64,000 nucleotides of DNA. Source: a virus. Positions 6,010-19,515 of this stretch are shown piece by piece. Position 1 is the stretch's first letter. Each line of letters begins with the position of its first letter. The DNA lies in the IMG/VR virus record IMGVR_UViG_3300045988_141624, positions 1 to 64,000 of that record; one strand, 5' to 3'. A model generated the notes under the pieces. That model made no database searches and was not told the DNA's origin. It was given only the letters and a program-made list of their open reading frames with translations. The position numbers were made by a program, and so were the translations under genes.

Positions 6010-6231
6010 ATGAAAGATACAATCTATACCCAAACTCAAAACGCATACACAGAAACGGGTTTCTTTATTATTAATACCGTGTTTAATAAAACTATTATGA
6101 TTCCCACGTCTTGCGTCCATGAATGGGAAGAACTTAATGGAGAATTGACCCCTAGAAAATATAAACAATTCTTAATTGATTATTTTGGTATTCCCCATGG
6201 GTTCACAGCTTTGGAGCCGAACCAAAGATGA
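6010..6231 (+). CDS. Hypothetical protein
   Basis: In-frame ATG at 6010 preceded by GAGGTG. Confidence 0.5.
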   Translation: MKDTIYTQTQNAYTETGFFIINTVFNKTIMIPTSCVHEWEELNGELTPRKYKQFLIDYFGIPHGFTALEPNQR

Positions 6232-6671
6232 AAAAAATAATTAAATTTATGCCCCTTGAGCTCTTCGCCACGAAAAAAGCTCATTGGGTGCGCCAAGGAA
6301 AATATCACGACCTCCAAAGATATTTCGTCAGAGATAACATCAAAGCAATGATGAAAGAAAATCATTCTTATGAAGAGTTCGCGCAAATGCAAAAGAACTT
6401 GTCTTATGGTGTTGAATATATTTGCAGCTCGATTGATGAATATATTTTTATCTCGGGCAAAGAGGCAATGGAAAAATCTTTAATCGAACTCAAAAAATTA
6501 ATTGAAAATAAAGAGCAAGATACACGCAAAATCGTGCGCTATATATGCACTCTCCAGTATTTTATCATCCGCACGTCCTCATTTATGTGCCACGCAAGGG
6601 ATAAAGAATATTGGGAAAAACTTAACTCTCTAAACACACAGAAAAATATGTTTGAAGAAGAGGATTTCTAA
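6228..6671 (+). CDS. Hypothetical protein
   Basis: ATGA overlap with the upstream gene. Confidence 0.6.
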   Translation: MKKIIKFMPLELFATKKAHWVRQGKYHDLQRYFVRDNIKAMMKENHSYEEFAQMQKNLSYGVEYICSSIDEYIFISGKEAMEKSLIELKKLIENKEQDTRKIVRYICTLQYFIIRTSSFMCHARDKEYWEKLNSLNTQKNMFEEEDF

Positions 6672-10148: not shown

Positions 10149-10364
10149 TTACACGCGCAAAAAATCGCTTAAAAAATATTTTCTTCTATACCTATTAAAA
10201 TAAGCGTTGTCATTTGCGTCCCAAAAAATGCTGGTTGTTCGCACGCTTTCCTGTTTATCCATGTTATAAAAACACGATGTTATTTTATCCTCCTGTTCAT
10301 CTATCGCTAAAATAGCGATAGAGAATACGTTGGTCAATCCTTGTGCTGCGATTGGTTTTTTCAT
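10149..10364 (-). CDS. Hypothetical protein
   Basis: First ORF downstream of the leftward consensus promoter. The RBS is GGAGGT. Confidence 0.55.
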   Translation of the reverse strand: MKKPIAAQGLTNVFSIAILAIDEQEDKITSCFYNMDKQESVRTTSIFWDANDNAYFNRYRRKYFLSDFLRV

Positions 10365-10408
10365 TTTTTAATACCTCCGTTTTTTGTTTGTTCCTCTGAA
10401 CACTTTTA

Positions 10409-10436
10409 ATTATAATGATTTTTTTGTTTTTGTCAA
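10409..10436 (-). promoter_or_regulatory. Consensus promoter (leftward) for the 10364-to-8410 cassette
   Basis: On the minus strand: TTGACA (10436-10431), a 16-nt spacer, then TATAAT (10414-10409). Confidence 0.6.
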
Positions 10437-10949
10437 CACTTTTTTATAATTTTTTTGAAAATTTTTTATAGCCCCTTTATATATAACAAGGAATAAAATT
10501 ATATCATTTACATTTTTTTAATTTTGCAGCAAAAAACACTTGACTTTTTTATTCTACTTTGATATATTGACATTGTAAATTTTAATTCCGTTATAAAATC
10601 CAAAAGGATATAGGAAAAAATAAGCCTAAAAAGGTTGTTTTTCCTATATCCTTTTTTTATTGCACTTGTGTATAATTGTATATACATAGAAATGTATAAA
10701 ATTATATGTATAAAAATACAAACTATGCAAAATTCCTGCATAAAAAAATGTATATTTTGTGAATATTTTGCATAATTTTTAGGAGGCAAAATAGAAGATG
10801 GTAATAGCGAAACAAAAATTTTCCTGGGGCGAGGAAGATATGGTAATAGCGAAAATTAAAAATTCCACAGGAGAAATAATAAAATAACTATTGAAAAATT
10901 TTTAAAAGTGATATATAATAAAAACAAAAAAGAAAAGAGGTTGTGTTTT

Positions 10950-11642
10950 ATGAAAATTGGTTTTGATTGTAAGTATGTTTATGTGGAGCCTTTGGGTGTG
11001 AGAGAGGTATATGCTTCTCCAGCGAGTGAGAAAAATGCGTTTTGCAATCTCTGTGATGAAGAATTGGTTTTATCTTATGAAAATTCTAAGTTTTCTTATA
11101 GAGAATCATATTTGGGAATATTGAAAATTGTAGATGTACCATTTGACTATATTTACATTTGTCCATTTTGTTATTATTTAAATGACTACATTAATAAACT
11201 TACAGCTTGGGGCAAAACAGGATTTCATAAATATAAATTATTTCTTCCTAGTTTTCTGTCTTTAATGTTGGCAAGTAATTTAGCCACCGAAGAAAACAAT
11301 TATAAAACTCTTAACGATACAATTATTCTAAACAATACAAAACAAACTCTTTGGAAAGAATTTTTGGACATTAAATCTTTGGAGGGAAAACAAAATCCTG
11401 AATTAATTAAACGTATTCTCGAGCAAAGGTTTGATGTTTACAGTCATAAAGTTGTTAAGCTTTTAGAAAAACCGCTGACATTTAGCGAATATTGCAAGAT
11501 GTTTTTTAAGTCGTTGTTTTATCAAATGATAGAAGAAAAAGAAGGGGTAAGCAAAGATAATAAAAAGAATTCAAACCAAGAGGAAGGCGAGAACGTTAAT
11601 AAATCTGAATTTGGAAATTTCAAATTGATTTCCGAAATTTGA
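10950..11642 (+). CDS. Hypothetical Cys-containing protein
   Basis: The ATG at 10950 follows AAGAGG. It contains CNLC ... CPFC pairs. Confidence 0.55.
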   Translation: MKIGFDCKYVYVEPLGVREVYASPASEKNAFCNLCDEELVLSYENSKFSYRESYLGILKIVDVPFDYIYICPFCYYLNDYINKLTAWGKTGFHKYKLFLPSFLSLMLASNLATEENNYKTLNDTIILNNTKQTLWKEFLDIKSLEGKQNPELIKRILEQRFDVYSHKVVKLLEKPLTFSEYCKMFFKSLFYQMIEEKEGVSKDNKKNSNQEEGENVNKSEFGNFKLISEI

Positions 11643-11973: not shown

Positions 11974-12007
11974 TTATGTAAAATATTATTTTTAAAAAGG
12001 AGGAATT

Positions 12008-12823
12008 ATGATGAAAAAATATACAAAAGAAGACTTTGAAACATTCAAACGAGACGAACGCGGATGGCTAATCTGCCCTAGTGGGGATTATACAGAGATT
12101 AAAAAGTTCCCAAAGAGGTGTAAATTTGATGGTGAAAGCATATTCAGCAATTGGAGCAGATTCAGCGAGGAATGTAGATTTGTCAGCTGGTGTACCTTTG
12201 GATACAGGTGTAGTTTTGGTGAGAAATGCAGATTTGATAACAGATGTAAATTTGGTTTTTGTAGTAGATTCAGGGCGAGATGTAGCTTCGGCGAGACGTG
12301 TGTATTTGAAGAGAATTGTAGTTTTGGAGCTTGTTGTAAATTCGGAAATAGCAATATATTTCATGAAGCATGTATTTTTGACCAAGGCTGCATATTTGGA
12401 AAATATTGTTTGTTTTATAAAAAAAGTGTCTTTGGTTCTTACTCGAAATTAGGAGACGGCTGCGTTGTTAAAGAAGAATGTAGGTTTGGAAGAGATTCTT
12501 CTTTTGGGCGGGGTATTATTTTTGGACATAATTGTAAATTTGGTCTTAATGGTTTTTTTGATAAGCATTGCATTTGGGGCGAAAATTGTCTTTTCAATTG
12601 GACACCATATCAAACTAATAAATCACAGAGGGAGAAACAAATGAATGAAGAATTACAAAGTGCTTTCAATATTGTTGTAAAATATGGTTTTTGTGGTGAA
12701 TGTCGTTATAATTTAGATTCCAGATATTGCGAGGGAACAATGTGTTATAGAGATATGAATCTAATTCGAGACGCTTTAGAGGCGTTTTCAGAAAAGGAGA
12801 GTAATGAAAATGAAAAACTGTGA
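12008..12823 (+). CDS. Hexapeptide-repeat (CxFGxx) protein, copy 1 of a duplicated module
   Basis: About 25 consecutive 6-residue units, for example CRFDNR CKFGF CSRFRAR CSFGET CVFEEN CSFGAC CKFGNS. The N-terminus, MMKKYTKEDFETFKRDERGWLICPSGDYTEIK, is shared with the 15920 product. Confidence 0.75.
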   Translation: MMKKYTKEDFETFKRDERGWLICPSGDYTEIKKFPKRCKFDGESIFSNWSRFSEECRFVSWCTFGYRCSFGEKCRFDNRCKFGFCSRFRARCSFGETCVFEENCSFGACCKFGNSNIFHEACIFDQGCIFGKYCLFYKKSVFGSYSKLGDGCVVKEECRFGRDSSFGRGIIFGHNCKFGLNGFFDKHCIWGENCLFNWTPYQTNKSQREKQMNEELQSAFNIVVKYGFCGECRYNLDSRYCEGTMCYRDMNLIRDALEAFSEKESNENEKL

Positions 12824-13181
12824 AGATTGCAAATATTATGATGGATATGATTTTTGGAATGGAACAGTTTATTGTGAACGTAAAGGTGGATATGAAAACT
12901 GTCCGTATGATGACGAAACACCAATTAAAAATAATGGTGGTAAGATAGAAGTTGATGTTGGATTTATGCAAGATTACATCTATTACACATTAAAGAATAT
13001 AACAGAAAGAGAAATCATAGCCATTGCACAAAAAGAAATAAAATCTATTATTGCTGAAAACTTAACAGATAAAATCCTAGAGGATATGAGAGCGCAAATT
13101 AAAGACGTTGTCTCTAATTCAATATCTGAGACAATAGAAGATGAGTTGAAAGACAGATTTAAAAAAGAGCCAAACAGATGA
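12804..13181 (+). CDS. Cys-rich N-terminus plus coiled-coil protein, copy 1 of a duplicated module
   Basis: MKNCEDCKYYDGYD...YENCPYDDET.IKNNG.KIEVD.GFM.DYIY.TLKN aligns along its whole length with the 16518 product. Confidence 0.7.
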   Translation: MKMKNCEDCKYYDGYDFWNGTVYCERKGGYENCPYDDETPIKNNGGKIEVDVGFMQDYIYYTLKNITEREIIAIAQKEIKSIIAENLTDKILEDMRAQIKDVVSNSISETIEDELKDRFKKEPNR

Positions 13182-13303
13182 AGAAATTTAAACAAATTCT
13201 TAAAACAATATTACTTTGGATAGAATCAAGTTTATGTGTTGCATTTTTGTTGATTTTGTCTATAATAGGAATGAGTTGGTTGTTAAAATTATGGGGTGTG
13301 TAA
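13178..13303 (+). CDS. Small membrane peptide (41 aa)
   Basis: ATGA start-stop overlap with the upstream gene. Hydrophobic core LCVAFLLILSIIGMSWLL. It is below the ORF-track cutoff. Confidence 0.35.
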   Translation: MKKFKQILKTILLWIESSLCVAFLLILSIIGMSWLLKLWGV

Positions 13304-13565
13304 ATTGAGAACTAAGAAATGGATTTATATTTGTGACCACTGTGGGAAAGCAGAGATAGGAGGAAAATATAATTATTCTTTGCAGGCTTTTGAAGCCGCT
13401 CCAAAAGGTTGGTACAAATTAGGTCGCGAAGATTTGTGTCCAGAGTGTTATGAAATATATTTAAAATTCAAAAATGAAGTGAAAAATAAAGAAGTGAAAA
13501 ATGAAAAAGAAGATATTCTTACAAAAAATTGCACTTTTAGAAAAAACTGGCTGCGTTCAAATTAG
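13296..13565 (+). CDS. Zinc-ribbon-like small protein
   Basis: CDHC ... CPEC pairs. The start codon is uncertain (GTG 13296 or TTG 13305). Confidence 0.5.
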   Translation: MCKLRTKKWIYICDHCGKAEIGGKYNYSLQAFEAAPKGWYKLGREDLCPECYEIYLKFKNEVKNKEVKNEKEDILTKNCTFRKNWLRSN

Positions 13566-13604
13566 TAAATTTTGTGAAATTGATAAATTAAGGAGGCAAA
13601 ACTA

Positions 13605-14801
13605 TTGATTAAAATTGAAAATATTGATGTGTTTGGTTGGGAAGCAGCTATTCGTGGAATGCGTAATCCGATGAATAGTTGGGATAAGAGTGATAGCTGG
13701 AAATTTACGCATATGGACGCTTTTACTCAAGAACATCTTGGAGTAGGATTTCATATTGGTGAAAACGATCTTAAACTCATGAAATCACTCTCCAAAGCTG
13801 GCAACGACCATGCTAAGTTCTTGCGTATGATTAACGTAACGTGTGACATTACCGCTCCAAGATTTTGGTGGGAACAATTTTCGACATATCGTGTCGGGGT
13901 TGTGCAAAATAGTACGTCTACCATGCATCGACTGACGCATAAAGCTTTTGGAATAGAGGATTTTAGTTGTGAACATTTAAGAGGGTATTCTCCAACACAT
14001 AAAACTTTTATTCCTCCGTTAAGGGAAGATGAAGAAGTATGGCGAGTTTTCAACAATACTAATTATGAAGTTAGCAGCGAGGGTAGAGTTAAAGTTAAAT
14101 ATAATCAACATCATTTTGAAGACGGTAAACGAGGTTATTACGAACGAGAAATTGTAGGTTCCATACATAAAGATGGATATTTATTTGTAACAATTAAGGG
14201 AAAACAATATCCAAAACATAGACTAGTTGCTGAATTATTTATTAATAATCCATACAATAAACCGTTTGTTAATCATATTGATGGTAATAAACAAAATAAT
14301 CGTGTTGAAAATTTGGAGTGGTGTACACAAAAAGAAAATATTAAGCATTCTTATAAAACTGGTCTACAAGGAAAACCTGTTAAATCTCACCCCAGTAAAT
14401 TACTTCATTTAATTCCAGAAGCAAAAAAAATGTATTTAGAAGGATTGAGCAAAAGAAAAATAGCAAGTGAACTTGGTATTTCTCACCCTAGTGTAAGTTA
14501 TCTATTAGAATATGAAGAACCTAAAAATGAATTTAATGAATTATTAAAGACAATAGATAGGCTAAATATATTGAGAGAAGAGTATTTGGATACGAAAGAT
14601 AAAGTAGTATGGAGGAATATGATTGAACTGCTCCCGCAATCCTACAACCAAAAGCGCACGGTTCAGTTAAACTATCAAGTTTTAAAATCTATGTATTTTG
14701 CGAGACGAAATCATAAACTTGAAGAGTGGCATACATTCTGTGATTGGATTGAGAGTCTGCCATATTCAGAGTTGATTATCGAATGCGGAAGAGATAAATA
14801 A
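13605..14801 (+). CDS. Divergent ThyX-like (flavin-dependent thymidylate synthase fold) protein carrying an in-frame HNH endonuclease module
   Basis: The TTG start follows AAGGAGG. The flanks resemble the ThyX layout: GNDHAKFLRMINVTCDITAPRFWWEQFSTYR...NSTST, then LLPQSYNQKRTVQLNYQVL..MYFARRNHKLEEW. However, the RHRxxS motif is not conserved. Confidence 0.6.
   Translation: MIKIENIDVFGWEAAIRGMRNPMNSWDKSDSWKFTHMDAFTQEHLGVGFHIGENDLKLMKSLSKAGNDHAKFLRMINVTCDITAPRFWWEQFSTYRVGVVQNSTSTMHRLTHKAFGIEDFSCEHLRGYSPTHKTFIPPLREDEEVWRVFNNTNYEVSSEGRVKVKYNQHHFEDGKRGYYEREIVGSIHKDGYLFVTIKGKQYPKHRLVAELFINNPYNKPFVNHIDGNKQNNRVENLEWCTQKENIKHSYKTGLQGKPVKSHPSKLLHLIPEAKKMYLEGLSKRKIASELGISHPSVSYLLEYEEPKNEFNELLKTIDRLNILREEYLDTKDKVVWRNMIELLPQSYNQKRTVQLNYQVLKSMYFARRNHKLEEWHTFCDWIESLPYSELIIECGRDK
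14025..14520 (+). mobile_element. HNH (NUMOD4 plus HNH_3 plus HTH) homing-endonuclease-like module fused in frame inside the ThyX-like gene
   Basis: EVWRVF..NYEVSSEGRVK (NUMOD4-like), NHIDGNKQNNRVENLEWCTQKEN (HNH), and LSKRKIASELGISHPSVSYLL (HTH). Boundaries are approximate. Confidence 0.6.
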
Positions 14802-14837
14802 TACCTGATATTTTAAGCTAATAAAAGGAGAACAATT

Positions 14838-15038
14838 ATGATTAAATTTAATATTTCTATCTATTGCCAGGACTGTCCGGATTTTGAGCCCCAAGTAACC
14901 CAAAGACCAGAGCATATTAAATCAAATTATGGCGACTCATATTTTTATGGTGATACGCTTGTTGAGTGCAAATATCGGAATCGCTGTGAAACTATTTACA
15001 ATTATTTGAAAAAGGAGAAAAATAATGGCTCTTGCTAA
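14838..15038 (+). CDS. Small Cys-containing hypothetical protein
   Basis: The ATG follows AAGGAGAA. Confidence 0.55.
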   Translation: MIKFNISIYCQDCPDFEPQVTQRPEHIKSNYGDSYFYGDTLVECKYRNRCETIYNYLKKEKNNGSC

Positions 15039-15228
15039 GAAATGTGATCGTTGTGGACAATTGCATGAACATTATCCCCTCGGAAACCAGCCAGGGGTGT
15101 TTAATTCTATTGCTATATGTAGACGAAACGCAACCGGTACAACGGAATGCACAAAAACAGTTCTGGATTTGTGTCCAAATTGCATGGCGCTACTTGAAAA
15201 ATTTATTACGGAGGGAAAAACGACATGA
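15025..15228 (+). CDS. Small zinc-ribbon protein
   Basis: CDRC ... CPNC pairs. The RBS is AAGGAGAA. Confidence 0.55.
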   Translation: MALAKKCDRCGQLHEHYPLGNQPGVFNSIAICRRNATGTTECTKTVLDLCPNCMALLEKFITEGKTT

Positions 15229-15407
15229 TGCTTTCTTGTAATCGATTTGCGTTCGTTCCGCATTTATGCCTTGAATGCAAACGTTATATTTGGCTAGAAG
15301 GCTATAGAAAAGCAAAGGTCTGGAAGAAAATTTCAAATATGTACATCAAAGAAAATATTTGTAAAAGTTGTCTCACAAAATTTGATGTGATGACTAAAAA
15401 GGAATAA
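15225..15407 (+). CDS. Small zinc-ribbon protein
   Basis: ATGA overlap with the upstream gene. CLEC ... CKSC pairs. Confidence 0.5.
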   Translation: MMLSCNRFAFVPHLCLECKRYIWLEGYRKAKVWKKISNMYIKENICKSCLTKFDVMTKKE

Positions 15408-15422
15408 GAAAGGAGATTAAAT

Positions 15423-15875
15423 ATGATTATTGTTATTCTCGTCCTGGGTATTCTAATGGCTGTTTGGGGAATTAAGCTTGAACTCGATAAACCGATTGTT
15501 GGCGTTGCGTTTCAAATCATTGGTGCCGTTGTCAGCTTAGCCTCAATTATAGTTGTCGTTTTGTTGCTTGGATGTGTAATTGACCGAGTTGGCATTGATA
15601 AAAAAATAGCCATGTATGAGGAGGAAAATGCCGGAATCGAGCAGCAAATTACAGATGTGGTAAAGCAATATCAGGAATACGAAAGTGGTATCTTTAAAGA
15701 TATTGCTCCCGAAGGTGCTATGACACTTGTTACTCTTTACCCCGAGCTTAAATCCGATACTCTTGTCCAGTCTCAAATCGAGGTTTACATCGAGAACAAC
15801 AAGGCGATTAAAGAGCTTAAAAGCATGACTGTCAATGCGTCCTTTTATCGTTGGTGGTTATATTTTGGAAAGTGA
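15423..15875 (+). CDS. Membrane protein (two N-terminal TM helices)
   Basis: MIIVILVLGILMAVWGI and AFQIIGAVVSLASIIVVVLLLGCVI. The RBS is AAGGAG. Confidence 0.65.
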   Translation: MIIVILVLGILMAVWGIKLELDKPIVGVAFQIIGAVVSLASIIVVVLLLGCVIDRVGIDKKIAMYEEENAGIEQQITDVVKQYQEYESGIFKDIAPEGAMTLVTLYPELKSDTLVQSQIEVYIENNKAIKELKSMTVNASFYRWWLYFGK

Positions 15876-15919
15876 GAAATGAAAATGAAAGTCGATATAT
15901 ACACAAATAAGGAGATATA

Positions 15920-16492
15920 ATGATGATGAAAAAATACACAAAAAAGGATTTAGAAACATTTCAGAGAGATGAACAGGGAAGGTTAATCTGTCCCCACGGT
16001 GATTACACAGAGATTAAATTTTTCCCAGCGAGGTGCTGTTTTGCCATGGGAAGCACATTCGGTGAGCGGAGCAACTTTGGCCAAGAAAGTACATTCGGCT
16101 TGATGTGTGTTTTTGGCATGGAAAGCACCTTCGGCATGGGAAGTAGATTTGGAGGCGGGAGCAACTTTGGCGGGCAAAGCAACTTCGACACGGGATGTAG
16201 GTTTGGTAAATGGAGCCGCTTTGGCGAATTGAGCAGATTCGGCAAGGGATGCAGTCATGAAGGACTGACCAACAGCATATATGTGGCGGTTGACAGGATC
16301 GGCAGTGAGCTGCGGAAAACATATTTCTTCAAAGCAGAAGAGGGATACTTTGTCCGCGCCGGTTGTTTTTTCGGAACGCTTAATGAGTTCAAAACGAAGC
16401 TAAACAAAACGCACGGCGGCACAATTCACGAGATAACATATTTAATGGCATGTAATTTAGCGGTAAAATTGTTGGATTCGCAGTGGAAATAA
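15920..16492 (+). CDS. Hexapeptide-repeat (SxFGxx) protein, copy 2 of a duplicated module
   Basis: STFGER SNFGQE STFGLM CVFGME STFGMG SRFGGG SNFGGQ SNFDTG CRFGKW SRFGEL SRFGKG. About three quarters of the N-terminal 40 aa are identical to the 12008 product. Confidence 0.75.
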   Translation: MMMKKYTKKDLETFQRDEQGRLICPHGDYTEIKFFPARCCFAMGSTFGERSNFGQESTFGLMCVFGMESTFGMGSRFGGGSNFGGQSNFDTGCRFGKWSRFGELSRFGKGCSHEGLTNSIYVAVDRIGSELRKTYFFKAEEGYFVRAGCFFGTLNEFKTKLNKTHGGTIHEITYLMACNLAVKLLDSQWK

Positions 16493-16517
16493 AATAAATG
16501 AAACAGGAGGAAGAAAA

Positions 16518-17162
16518 ATGAAAGAATGTAGAGATTGTAAATACTTTGAGGGATATGACTATTCAGATGGTACACCATATTGTAAATATGAAAAGGGATA
16601 TGAAAACTGTCCGTACAATGATGAGACAGAAATTAAAAATAATGGTATTAAAATAGAAGTCGATGCAGGATTTATGCATGATTATATCTATCACACCTTA
16701 AAGAACACAATTGAAAAAGAAGCCAGCGGCATGGCACAAGAAGAAATAAAATCTATTATTACTGATAACTTAAAAGATGAAATTTTAGAGGAGATGAAAA
16801 GACAAATCAAAGAGACTGTTTCTGAGTCAATCTCTAATTTTATGATGAAAGAAATAACAATTGGTGGTGGGTGGAACAATCCTGAAAGGAAAGTAACTAG
16901 AGAAGAATATTTATCTGAAGTAATAGAAAACGAGTTAAAAGACAGGTTTAAATCTGATGTTTTAAGAAATTCTATCATAAATGAAATTGCAAAGAGTATA
17001 GATAATTATGATAGAAAACTTCGTGATGAGATAAACAAAGGTGTTAAAAATTATTTTGATGTAGCAACAAGACAAACTTTGACAGAGAATGTTGTTTCTA
17101 TGCTTATGACAAATGACACATATCAGAAACTTTCAAACAGCATGAAAACTTTCTTACCATAA
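16518..17162 (+). CDS. Cys-rich N-terminus plus coiled-coil protein, copy 2 (longer)
   Basis: It aligns with the 12804 product, with an insertion of about 30 aa and a C-terminal extension. Confidence 0.7.
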   Translation: MKECRDCKYFEGYDYSDGTPYCKYEKGYENCPYNDETEIKNNGIKIEVDAGFMHDYIYHTLKNTIEKEASGMAQEEIKSIITDNLKDEILEEMKRQIKETVSESISNFMMKEITIGGGWNNPERKVTREEYLSEVIENELKDRFKSDVLRNSIINEIAKSIDNYDRKLRDEINKGVKNYFDVATRQTLTENVVSMLMTNDTYQKLSNSMKTFLP

Positions 17163-17177
17163 TTAGGAAATACTCAA

Positions 17178-17228
17178 CATGAGGGATTGCCATATTTGGA
17201 GTTGATTACAGGCGGTACAGAAAAATGA
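17178..17228 (+). pseudogene. Orphan remnant of the ThyX-like gene's 3' tail
   Basis: It translates as HEGLPYLELITGGTEK*, compare ..WIESLPYSELIIECGRDK* at 14750-14801. No upstream gene body is present. Confidence 0.45.
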
Positions 17229-17309
17229 ACATGAATGACTGGGCAAAAAATTACATAGAAATTATTGCAAAAAGTGTGGTCAAGCTATTGATTGGAGTGA
17301 AAACAAATA

Positions 17310-17720
17310 ATGTATTTAGAAAACGCTATTAAAGTTATTGAATACGCTAAAGCGTATAATAAGAAAGATGCTACATTAAGGTTTGCTTTAAATTTGGCAA
17401 CCGTGGTATTAAAAAAAGTGTTAGAGGAAGAACAAGCAAAAGAAGAACACGAAGATTTGTCTGAAGAATATTATAAAGGATATATAGATGCTTATTACGA
17501 AATTATGACCAAACCAGCATATTTTCAACTTGAAAAAGTCGAAGACGATGTTGGAATTGTAAGGTGTAAAAATTGTGATATGTGGTGTGATGACAATATA
17601 ATTATAGAAGGGGGAATTAAAGAAAATATAAAACCTTGTGCGCAATGGTCTGGTGAAGGGCACATTGTTTTCACTAAGAAAAATGATTTTTGTAGTTATG
17701 GTGAGCGGAGGAATGAATAA
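17310..17720 (+). CDS. Hypothetical protein
   Basis: Clean ORF. C-terminal CKNCDMWC motif. Confidence 0.55.
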   Translation: MYLENAIKVIEYAKAYNKKDATLRFALNLATVVLKKVLEEEQAKEEHEDLSEEYYKGYIDAYYEIMTKPAYFQLEKVEDDVGIVRCKNCDMWCDDNIIIEGGIKENIKPCAQWSGEGHIVFTKKNDFCSYGERRNE

Positions 17721-17826
17721 TGAAAAGAAATAAAGTAAGTCGCATGAAGAGTTATGAATTGGTAAACTTTTGTGAAATTGATAAATTTGCTCTCAGAAAA
17801 AGCAATTTAAAAGTGGAGGTAATGTT

Positions 17827-18258
17827 ATGTTTTACTTATTTAATCAGAATAATTCAGGCGGCTCTTTTATTGTAAATGATAAAGTTTGTCATAGACTTTT
17901 TATTGAAGCTGATGACGGGAGAGAAGCACTCCGAGTAGCCGAAAGTCTTGGTTGCTATTGGGATGGCGTAAGCAAGGGTTTGGATTGTCCTTGTTGTGGC
18001 GATAGATGGAGTAGATATTACAATGAAATTGATATTAACAAATTTAAGAACGATGGATATGAGGTAAGTGTTTATGATAGTATTTATCATAATACTGTTC
18101 AAGAATGGGAAAAGAAATATGGTAAATTTACCATTGTTAAACAACCTCATTTTAAAAGTGATAAATATGGTAATTTTCGTTTATATGTTGGCTCTATCTC
18201 ATTCGCGTCCATTGAAGAATATGCGCAATATATGGCAAACTTTTTGTGGATGGATTGA
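17827..18258 (+). CDS. Hypothetical protein
   Basis: The ATG follows GGAGGT. It contains CPCCGDRW. Confidence 0.55.
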   Translation: MFYLFNQNNSGGSFIVNDKVCHRLFIEADDGREALRVAESLGCYWDGVSKGLDCPCCGDRWSRYYNEIDINKFKNDGYEVSVYDSIYHNTVQEWEKKYGKFTIVKQPHFKSDKYGNFRLYVGSISFASIEEYAQYMANFLWMD

Positions 18259-18298
18259 AACATTACCTTATGCAAAGGAACTGATTTGTCTTGAATGA
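18233..18298 (+). pseudogene. Second orphan remnant of the ThyX-like gene's 3' tail (out of frame with the 17827 gene)
   Basis: It translates as WQTFCGWIETLPYAKELICLE*, compare WHTFCDWIESLPYSELIIE. Confidence 0.45.
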
Positions 18299-18341
18299 AA
18301 TTTAGTTAAACAAAATTAGTGAAAGAAAGAGTAGGTAAAAT

Positions 18342-18518
18342 ATGACTGTTAAAAAATTAAAAGAATATCTTGAAAAGAACGAAGTTCCAGACAGTGCAGA
18401 AATTTTTATCTATGCGGATTATGGGAATTATGGAAAAGTAAGCGGAGAATTTGTTATTTTCAAAAATGGTTCTACAAACGATTGTAATGAGATAATTTTT
18501 GAGTTTAATGACAAATAA
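18342..18518 (+). CDS. Small hypothetical protein (58 aa)
   Basis: ATG ORF that fills an intergenic gap. The RBS is weak. It is below the ORF-track cutoff. Confidence 0.3.
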   Translation: MTVKKLKEYLEKNEVPDSAEIFIYADYGNYGKVSGEFVIFKNGSTNDCNEIIFEFNDK

Positions 18519-18646
18519 AGGGAAAATAAAATTTGTGTCGAATATATAAATATAGATGTTACATTTTTGTAATATCTGGTTGAATTGCTAATATTTTTCA
18601 TGAAGCCTATCACAAAATGGGCTTCAAAATTTTGTTAAAAAACATA

Positions 18647-18699: not shown

Positions 18700-19515
18700 A
18701 TGGAAAACATGGAGTTATTTTTGAAGAATTTACAAGGTGAGGGAAAATCTAAAAACACAATTGTAAATTATCAAAAAGATGTTCGAGATATGTTGTCTTT
18801 TGTAAATAAGAATGAGGCTGTAATCACGGTTGAAGATTTAGTGGTTTGGAAGGCAAGTTTAGATACTTATGCTTCGGCCTCTATTTATAGAAAAATTAGT
18901 GCTGTGAAAAGCTACTTTGGTTTTTTGAATGGAATTAATCGAATTAAAAATAATCCAGCCAAAAACCTAAAAAATGTAAAGGTTAAAAATAAAGAAAAAC
19001 CTTATATTCCCATGGAAGAAGCAGTAGACTTGATTAAATATGGGAAAAATGCAAGAGATAAAGCTATTGTTGCAATGTATTTGAGTACAGGATTGCGGGT
19101 TTCCGAACTAATTAGAATCACTTTGGAACAATATGAAAACGATGATATTTATATTGAGACAAAAGGTGGAAGCTTTAGGCGAGTTTATTTAAACCAATCC
19201 TGTAGAGAATATGTTGACAAATATCTTGAAACTAGGAAGAACGGCGCAGAGAACTTGTTTGTTTCTAATCAAGGGACTCCAATGCGCCCAGAGTGTATAA
19301 ATAGAACATTGAAGAATATTGCGAAAAGAGCAGGAATTACCAAAAATATCAGCAATCATAGCTTGCGTTATACTTTTGTAAGTGATGTGTGTGATAATTA
19401 TGGTATTAGAGTGGCCCAAGAAACAATTGGTCATAAGTCTATCAAAACAACTGAAAGATATTCCAAAGTGAAAGAAGAAAAAATAAAAGATGTAATGTTG
19501 TCTATTGCATTTTAA
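18700..19515 (+). CDS. Tyrosine site-specific recombinase (XerC/D-like integrase)
   Basis: Catalytic signature GLRVSEL (R), HSLRYTF (HxxR) and GHKSIKTTERY (H...Y), plus an N-terminal SAM-like domain. Confidence 0.85.
   Translation: MENMELFLKNLQGEGKSKNTIVNYQKDVRDMLSFVNKNEAVITVEDLVVWKASLDTYASASIYRKISAVKSYFGFLNGINRIKNNPAKNLKNVKVKNKEKPYIPMEEAVDLIKYGKNARDKAIVAMYLSTGLRVSELIRITLEQYENDDIYIETKGGSFRRVYLNQSCREYVDKYLETRKNGAENLFVSNQGTPMRPECINRTLKNIAKRAGITKNISNHSLRYTFVSDVCDNYGIRVAQETIGHKSIKTTERYSKVKEEKIKDVMLSIAF

Follow-up and report, generated by a model that had tools for sequence, protein, structure and literature searches.

The 64,000-nucleotide stretch of viral DNA analysed here (IMG/VR record IMGVR_UViG_3300045988_141624, positions 1 to 64,000; hereafter the window) is low in GC (~32%), phage-like, and part of a genome of at least 136 kb, a 136-kb contig being where its exact A and B proteins are found. 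Between positions 12008 and 17162 it carries two genes of a hexapeptide-repeat family, A, each followed by a gene of a second family, B, whose full-length form joins a Cys4 knuckle to long predicted helices. An earlier note on this DNA had described the four genes as a duplicated two-gene module. We label them A1, B1, A2, and B2, and use L-numbers (for example L114) for loci fetched from relatives.

12008-12823, plus strand: A1, 271 aa; N-cap 12011-12124, ~27 F-G-x-x-C/S-x hexads at ~12125-12600, Cys4 module at ~12635-12800
12804-13181, plus strand: B1, 125 aa; truncated B-family gene, with Cys4 knuckle and first long helix retained
15920-16492, plus strand: A2, 190 aa; canonical family A, with N-cap 15926-16039, 12-13 hexads at 16040-16255, and AC domain 16256-16483
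16518-17162, plus strand: B2, 214 aa; full-length B, with Cys4 knuckle, ~60-residue helix, GGGW beta-hairpin, and three further helices

The open reading frames (ORFs) lie where the earlier note had placed them, and the paralogy it claimed for both pairs is supported by BLASTP, with 51% identity across the N-terminal 110 aa of A1 and A2 (E 2e-30) and 54% identity between B1 and B2 (E 1e-52). The C-termini of the two A proteins differ, as also claimed, since A2 ends in the AC domain and A1 in a Cys4 module. Both A proteins are basic, with isoelectric points (pI) of 8.2 for A1 (net +5) and 8.9 for A2 (net +6), and the window B proteins are acidic (pI 4.7–4.9; B2, 4.9). Scans of the four proteins against Pfam, PHROGs, NCBIfam, and PADLOC returned only sub-threshold hexapeptide matches and PHROGs of unknown function; the best match to a PADLOC defence model (E 0.0057) involved short helical stretches. 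Profile sequence searches of the PDB found no relative of either family. The suggestion that neither family has been described is thus upheld by the absence of Pfam or NCBIfam membership, of PADLOC membership, and of a PDB relative.

Six-frame ORFs of all fetched loci were searched with hidden Markov models (HMMs) for the A N-terminal domain (AN), the A C-terminal domain (AC), and B. No A gene was found at 29 B loci (27 from IMG/VR plus L001 and L002; ±6-8 kb), and no B gene at 79 A loci (78 from IMG/VR plus L003; ±6-8 kb). B was likewise absent within ±10 kb of 14 A loci in bacterial genomes, including the Christensenella sp. MSJ-20 chromosome and several Christensenellaceae metagenome-assembled genomes (MAGs). 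The IMG/VR contig identifiers of the A set and the B set had none in common. When 40 distinct B genes were sorted by identity to B2, eight were at least 71% identical and 32 were at most 65% identical. An A gene lies 19-2308 nt upstream in seven of the eight close relatives, the eighth having just 1.3 kb of flank, and near none of the 32 distant ones.

Even among the close relatives the arrangement varies. A is followed directly by B in L113, L131, L132, and L136, and a 56-aa Cys4 gene stands between them in L114, L115, and L130. In L109, A is followed by eight genes, a 54-aa Cys4 gene, and then B, at an A-B distance of 2.3 kb; the syntenic relatives L111 and L112 carry three A genes and no B. 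Given that the pairing is confined to close relatives and that its arrangements vary, the adjacency is inherited synteny of one lineage, not a coupling kept over evolutionary distance. The two-gene module of the earlier note fails at this point, because A and B do not co-occur outside the lineage (0 of 32 distant B genes, 0 of ~90 A loci, and no shared IMG/VR contig), an outcome that the note itself had named as refuting it. We consider it probable that A and B are two unrelated, independent gene families, neighbours by descent in this phage lineage only. Our estimate is about 0.7, a figure that covers the best explanation given here as a whole.

The DNA of the two pairs also argues against their duplication as one unit, which the earlier note had proposed. 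In blastn comparisons, homology covers the 5' end of A only (12004-12180 versus 15919-16095, 72%) and the 5' half of B (12799-13127 versus 16507-16835, 77.5%), with none across the A-B junction, and the two pairs are collinear with different relatives. Window positions 12004-13129 and 13172-15028 are collinear with L114, and ~344 nt of the 3' half of the L114 B gene are missing in the window, which explains the truncation of B1. Positions 14571-17164 are collinear with L131, where B directly follows A, and 15630-18511 have no counterpart in L114. The L114 B protein is 92% identical to B2 and only ~56% identical to B1 (147 aligned positions).

These comparisons indicate that the window joins two cassette arrangements that relatives carry separately. 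One is A-Cys4 gene-B, the order in L114, and the other is A-B, the order in L113 and L131; the first pair has since degenerated through truncation of B1. The A and B families would each move, duplicate, and decay independently within a plastic accessory-gene block.

B1 lacks the residues matching B2 108-134 and all those beyond about residue 150, a loss of ~40% of the protein. Nearly all listed B homologs, in contrast, have at least 212 aa. Judged from its sequence, B1 is a deletion derivative of full-length B and not a complete paralog. Directly after B1 lies a gene for a 41-aa hydrophobic peptide (MKKFKQILKTILLWIESSLCVAFLLILSIIGMSWLLKLWGV; window 13178-13303). The identical 41 residues follow the full-length B gene in L114 (5175-5342), where the ORF is one codon longer.

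A search with A2 retrieved 123 homologs, nearly all of them unnamed metagenomic proteins of 106-260 aa. Their alignment has three parts: a 38-aa N-terminal domain, a hexapeptide run of variable length, and a C-terminal domain, AC, of ~75 aa that carries the conserved stretch SHEGLTNSIYVAVDRIGSELRKTYFFKAEEGYFVRAGCFFGTLDEF. The N-terminal domain, or N-cap, has the consensus MKKYTxKDLExFERDExGxLICPSGDYTxIKxFP, with an ICPxGDY motif. A2 matches AN at 7e-23 and AC at 5e-43. In 160 distinct members, we measured the repeat region as the segment between the end-domain HMM matches; it spans 0-169 aa and is an exact multiple of six in 134 of them. This result, together with a confident beta-solenoid model of A2, bears out the hexapeptide period that the earlier note had seen in A, which is far stronger than chance would give.

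The hexad consensus is F-G-E-x-C-S, and relatives carry 0-28 hexads. Residue use, position by position, is F (99%); G (85%); E (47%), A (14%), or K (11%); variable (G, W, R, and others); C (85%) or S (12%); and S (45%), R (15%), or I (10%). This register is that of classical hexapeptide repeats, with a hydrophobic residue at i, Gly at i+1, and a small residue at i+4, where Cys or Ser accounts for 97%; most A2 hexads have Ser rather than Cys at this small inward position. By sequence pattern, Phe and Cys/Ser are predicted to fill the two inward-pointing positions, leaving the others exposed and hypervariable. Lag correlations in the arrays have a weak peak at lag 3 (0.271 versus 0.236-0.259), and odd hexad counts are mildly in excess (81 versus 53 even), a weak hint on coil geometry, for which the hexapeptide superfamily has a left-handed triangular coil of 18 residues per turn. 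A2 also contains a 54-nt (three-hexad) internal DNA duplication at 16122-16226, but the higher-order period in L058 is 90 nt.

An AlphaFold2 (AF2) model of A2, built on a 98-sequence alignment, is very confident (predicted local distance difference test, pLDDT, 93.8; predicted template modelling score, pTM, 0.77). It has a two-residue strand every six residues over residues 22-118, followed by a C-terminal domain of four strands and two helices. On this model, family A is a capped beta-solenoid made up of an N-cap, a hexapeptide run, and a C-terminal module. Foldseek searches of BFVD with the model gave ten matches below 1e-3, all to beta-solenoid proteins of phages, which are annotated in various ways; a number of small BFVD proteins align over ~70 residues with a root-mean-square deviation of 1-2 Å, probably to the C-terminal domain. 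The weak Foldseek matches in the PDB are solenoids of several sorts, among them Qnr, ice-binding proteins, the luminal domain of SV2, and the C-terminal domain of CAP.

The AC domain gives the clearest links to other proteins. It matches phrog_20532 (1.2e-12 for the isolated domain; 6.7e-12 for whole A2, residues 118-181) and the C-terminal end of phrog_7964 (2.6e-6). Proteins of these two groups, whose function is unknown, share with A the plan of a solenoid followed by an AC-type C-terminal domain. They differ in the repeat, which in phrog_7964 is of the YdcK G-N-A-x-V type and in A is F-G-x-x-C-x, and A has its own N-cap and a hypervariable repeat number that goes down to zero. A YdcK-type solenoid gene adjoins an A gene in L077 (6733-7572; phrog_7964 8e-76, YdcK_fam 1.9e-27). 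The AC matches and the solenoid together place A, as a new solenoid variant, in a wider class of phage proteins built on this plan, whose function is not known. Searches with AC alone found no named proteins and no informative fusions. Among 50,697 phage records, tblastn matched A2 through its C-terminal domain only, and free-standing copies of AC occur in Ruminococcus phage phiRM10 (gp34) and Clostridium phage Amboise. We found no functional study in the literature on YdcK, on hexapeptide or solenoid phage proteins, or on Christensenellaceae phages.

In A1, AN is matched at 4e-23 and AC is not matched by HMM. Its 55-residue tail is instead 71-73% identical to the products of free-standing 54-56-aa Cys4 genes (L109 9834-9998 and L114 4380-4550), which lie upstream of B in both loci, and 89% identical to the tail of L113 ORF 8155-8825, which likewise starts with the A N-cap. 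The corresponding L114 ORF is split by one extra G in a G-run, and the window and L113 forms are fused. A sequencing error as the source of the A1 fusion was rejected because the same fused ORF is present in the independent contig L113. Comparison of A1 with A2-type proteins thus indicates that the N-cap and solenoid can bear either of two C-terminal modules, Cys4 or AC.

Family A also varies in copy number and in array length. Single genomes carry several A genes: two in L031, three in L111/L112, three in L113, and two in the window. Among 16 pairs with 97-100% identical end domains, solenoid length differs in 11, by up to 114 aa (19 hexads). L045 and L058 have flanks identical save for four substitutions, and differ by a clean 216-nt indel within the repeat array. 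The L058 array (6098-6494) is highly regular DNA, with an 18-nt period in 21.6 copies and a 90-nt higher-order period. The indel is bounded by short identical stretches, which would allow an assembly shortcut, so the 216-nt difference reflects either real recombination or assembly collapse. Diverged arrays differ in length free of this caveat, as between A2 and P0122 and between the window and L131; L131 is collinear with the window on both sides yet lacks ~135 nt of repeats. Three IMG/VR contigs (L076/L099, L086/L092, and L082/L104) open with the 3' part of an A gene and close with its 5' part. Both ends of each contig thus lie inside the hexapeptide array, which suggests that circular genomes were broken there during assembly.

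Family B is a different kind of protein. B2 has 157 homologs, and a B profile search of 1.84 billion representatives returned 187 clusters at 50% identity. Many clusters begin at profile position 44 or later, so the Cys4 knuckle is absent there and must be optional. Invariant residues include C4, C7, C22, C31, and the GGGW motif, and the family is uniformly acidic (pI 4.6-5.4). The AF2 model of B2 (pLDDT 78, pTM 0.30) has a small N-terminal knuckle, a 60-residue helix, a beta-hairpin, and three helices. The four invariant N-terminal cysteines, the acidity, and the long predicted helices agree with what the earlier note had said of B, and the model depicts an elongated protein made mainly of helices, which is acidic and to which the Cys4 knuckle is an optional addition. 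Foldseek of the B2 model, like the profile searches, found no relative of B in the PDB, and tblastn found no match to B2 among the same phage records. Among larger proteins retrieved by the B profile, no fused domain was consistent; ribosomal L1 in one of them is probably a spurious low-complexity match. The helical core of several members has a recurrent weak similarity to DUF445 (PF04286), which is uncharacterised, usually longer, and membrane-associated. B2 scores 12.8 bits (E 0.11) and the best relative, P0405, 32.4 bits; no member scored reaches the gathering score of 33.8. Unlike DUF445, B has the optional Cys4 knuckle and no predicted membrane segment.

Taken together with its neighbourhood, this architecture suggests how the two families may act. 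A would function early in infection as a non-enzymatic binding or decoy protein, its solenoid serving as a fast-evolving surface or spacer of adjustable length from which the conserved C-terminal module would reach its target, in the host or the phage. B, probably a helical oligomer, would work on its own. The earlier note had raised a role in anti-defence or host takeover, and A or B may have one. A more specific proposal, which we regard as tentative, is that A is an undescribed class of capped Phe/Cys-ladder hexapeptide solenoids that would serve phages of gut Clostridia as arms-race binders, either anti-defence decoys or host-takeover inhibitors. Recombination within the array would retune their length quickly, the interchangeable AC and Cys4 modules would be effector or anchor, and B may be a lineage partner.

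Several points weigh against the explanation of A and B as independent families in which A is a binding solenoid. Within the lineage, A repeatedly lies immediately upstream of B, at gaps of 19-35 nt (L113, L131, L132, L136, and the window), and the window A proteins are basic and the B proteins acidic. This close spacing and opposite charge would allow a lineage-specific A-B interaction, for which there is no comparative support. Foldseek of the A2 model against the PDB gave nothing significant (best E 0.04). Short-read assembly may have produced some of the differences in repeat number seen among near-identical genes. Finally, the binding or decoy role of A is deduced solely from how the protein is built, its hypervariable exposed positions, changes in copy number, its several copies per genome, and its place in an early operon.

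The first two of these points are also what would favour a functional two-component system, in which a basic solenoid works with an acidic helical partner and the set has been duplicated. The window has two such adjacent pairs, seven of eight close relatives have an A no more than 2.3 kb upstream of B, often at the short gaps just given, and the window copies are oppositely charged. We nonetheless consider such a system unlikely, and as a general system it is largely refuted: distant B genes lack A and A loci beyond the lineage lack B, no IMG/VR contig has both, and L111/L112 have three A genes without B. In addition, other genes separate A and B in L109 and L114, DNA homology stops at the junction, and the charge of A is not kept across the family.

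Charge also bears on whether A could be a DNA mimic, a rod-like beta-helix that blocks restriction enzymes, topoisomerases, or other DNA-binding defence proteins, as the earlier note had speculated on the basis of a repeating surface charge. Pentapeptide-repeat proteins mimic DNA toward gyrase. Those proteins (Qnr, MfpA, and phage members) resemble A in placing small i-2 and Phe/Leu i residues inward and in forming capped solenoids of variable length, and they are among the best, if weak, Foldseek matches of A2 (for example EfsQnr and phage members). The period of A, however, is strictly six and not five (A(D/N)LXX), and its surface has no consistent negative charge. Solenoid net charge is at or below -0.5 per hexad in 18% of the family, but it ranges from -0.88 to +0.56 with a median of -0.17, so that no repeating charge is kept. 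Because both window copies are basic (A1 +5, A2 +6), DNA mimicry is unsupported here despite the modelled solenoid shape, and the existence of members with 0-2 hexads indicates that the rod is dispensable. We judge this reading very unlikely.

It is highly improbable, in our view, that the cysteines of the A repeats form metal-binding units, whether tandem CCCH-like zinc knuckles or a metallothionein-like cluster, in place of a solenoid core. Cys occupies one hexad position at 85%, several homologs have faint precomputed matches to PF14608 (zf-CCCH_2), and there is a weak PDB sequence match to the CCCH protein 6nzl (E 0.1). Yet Ser replaces Cys at most A2 hexads and at 12% family-wide, no His is conserved, and the CCCH ligand set C-x-C-x-C-x3-H is absent. 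The Cys position is, moreover, the one that points to the core in hexapeptide helices, and AF2 gives a very confident beta-solenoid.

Left-handed beta-helix hexapeptide proteins (PF00132, LbH; LpxA/LpxD/GlmU) share with A the six-residue period and the hydrophobic i, Gly i+1, and small i+4 pattern. They differ in that A has, nearly invariantly, Phe for Ile/Leu/Val and Cys for Ser/Thr/Ala/Val, and that its length varies. That A is an acyltransferase of this kind is scarcely credible: although its register equals the classical [LIV]-G-x2-[STAV]-x and weak matches to LbH_EIF2B, Hexapep, LpxD, and NeuD exist, all scores fall far below the curated cut-offs (A1, 16.8 bits versus 27 for Hexapep and 24.5 versus 54 for LbH_EIF2B; NCBIfam LpxD/NeuD, 19-23 bits versus 160-242, for example 22.8 versus 207; A2, no match), hexad number runs from 0 to 28 with zero-repeat members included, the solenoid lacks loop insertions and conserved residues of a polar or catalytic kind and is most variable at exposed positions, and no PDB fold match is significant.

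The four genes lie in a rightward block. The features that delimit the block are as follows.

10436-10409, minus strand: sigma-70-like promoter, 12 of 12 consensus matches; diverges from 10891-10919
10540-10568, plus strand: sigma-70-like promoter, 10-11 of 12 consensus matches (a range shared with 10891-10919)
10891-10919, plus strand: sigma-70-like promoter, 11 of 12 consensus matches; head of the rightward operon that holds A1, B1, A2, and B2
18601-18626, plus strand: terminator-like hairpin downstream of the accessory block, just before the tyrosine recombinase gene
18700-19515: tyrosine recombinase gene, following the hairpin

The promoters are consensus matches only, and such matches are no more numerous in the region than expected from shuffled sequence. 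Between the small leftward genes and the rightward accessory/replication operon lies a 544-nt intergenic region (10364-10908), a layout kept in relatives. Downstream in syntenic relatives are genes for a tyrosine recombinase, a cell-wall hydrolase, YorF, AAA_24, YorH, and DnaB; the YorF and YorH replication genes are SPbeta-type. We read the region as a plastic block of accessory genes with which a long, probably early operon running rightward begins, in what would be a phage of gut Clostridia. A-family genes occur in the Christensenella sp. MSJ-20 chromosome (L119, NZ_CP076563, 1398921-1419550) and in Christensenellaceae MAGs (L117 and L123-L125), which suggests prophages there and hosts for A-bearing phages.

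Other genes of the block include a 398-aa ORF (13605-14801) with an HNH_3 and NUMOD4 homing-endonuclease core and long N- and C-terminal extensions; this neighbouring HNH gene was the sole match in a DNA-level search of phage records. The endonuclease's C-terminal motif FCDWIESLPYSELI reappears, as FCGWIETLPYAKELI, in a short ORF (18068-18298) whose sequence runs over the end of the DUF7296 gene (17827-18258); this may be a remnant of a second endonuclease copy or of its target gene. Genes for small Cys-rich (CxxC…CxxC) proteins crowd the block (10908-11642, 13296-13565, 14838-15407, and 17310-17720) and many other loci too. In other phages, the commonest neighbour of A is a zinc-ribbon family (cluster 0, ending …YCPNCGAKM), which lies no more than five genes from A in 13 of the 39 distinct loci.

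For genome scans, these results carry a caution, as what looks in a single genome like a persuasive duplicated module can be independent accessory genes kept side by side in one lineage, and attention to this guards against over-calling new phage systems. No long-standing question is directly testable from the findings alone. Family A nevertheless offers a case for protein design and evolution, as a natural solenoid that tolerates 0-28 units on a near-invariant Phe/Gly/Cys skeleton with swappable end modules. In its multiple copies, early-operon position, and hypervariable exposed positions it resembles known phage counter-defence genes, which makes it a candidate for screening in the poorly studied phages of Christensenellaceae.

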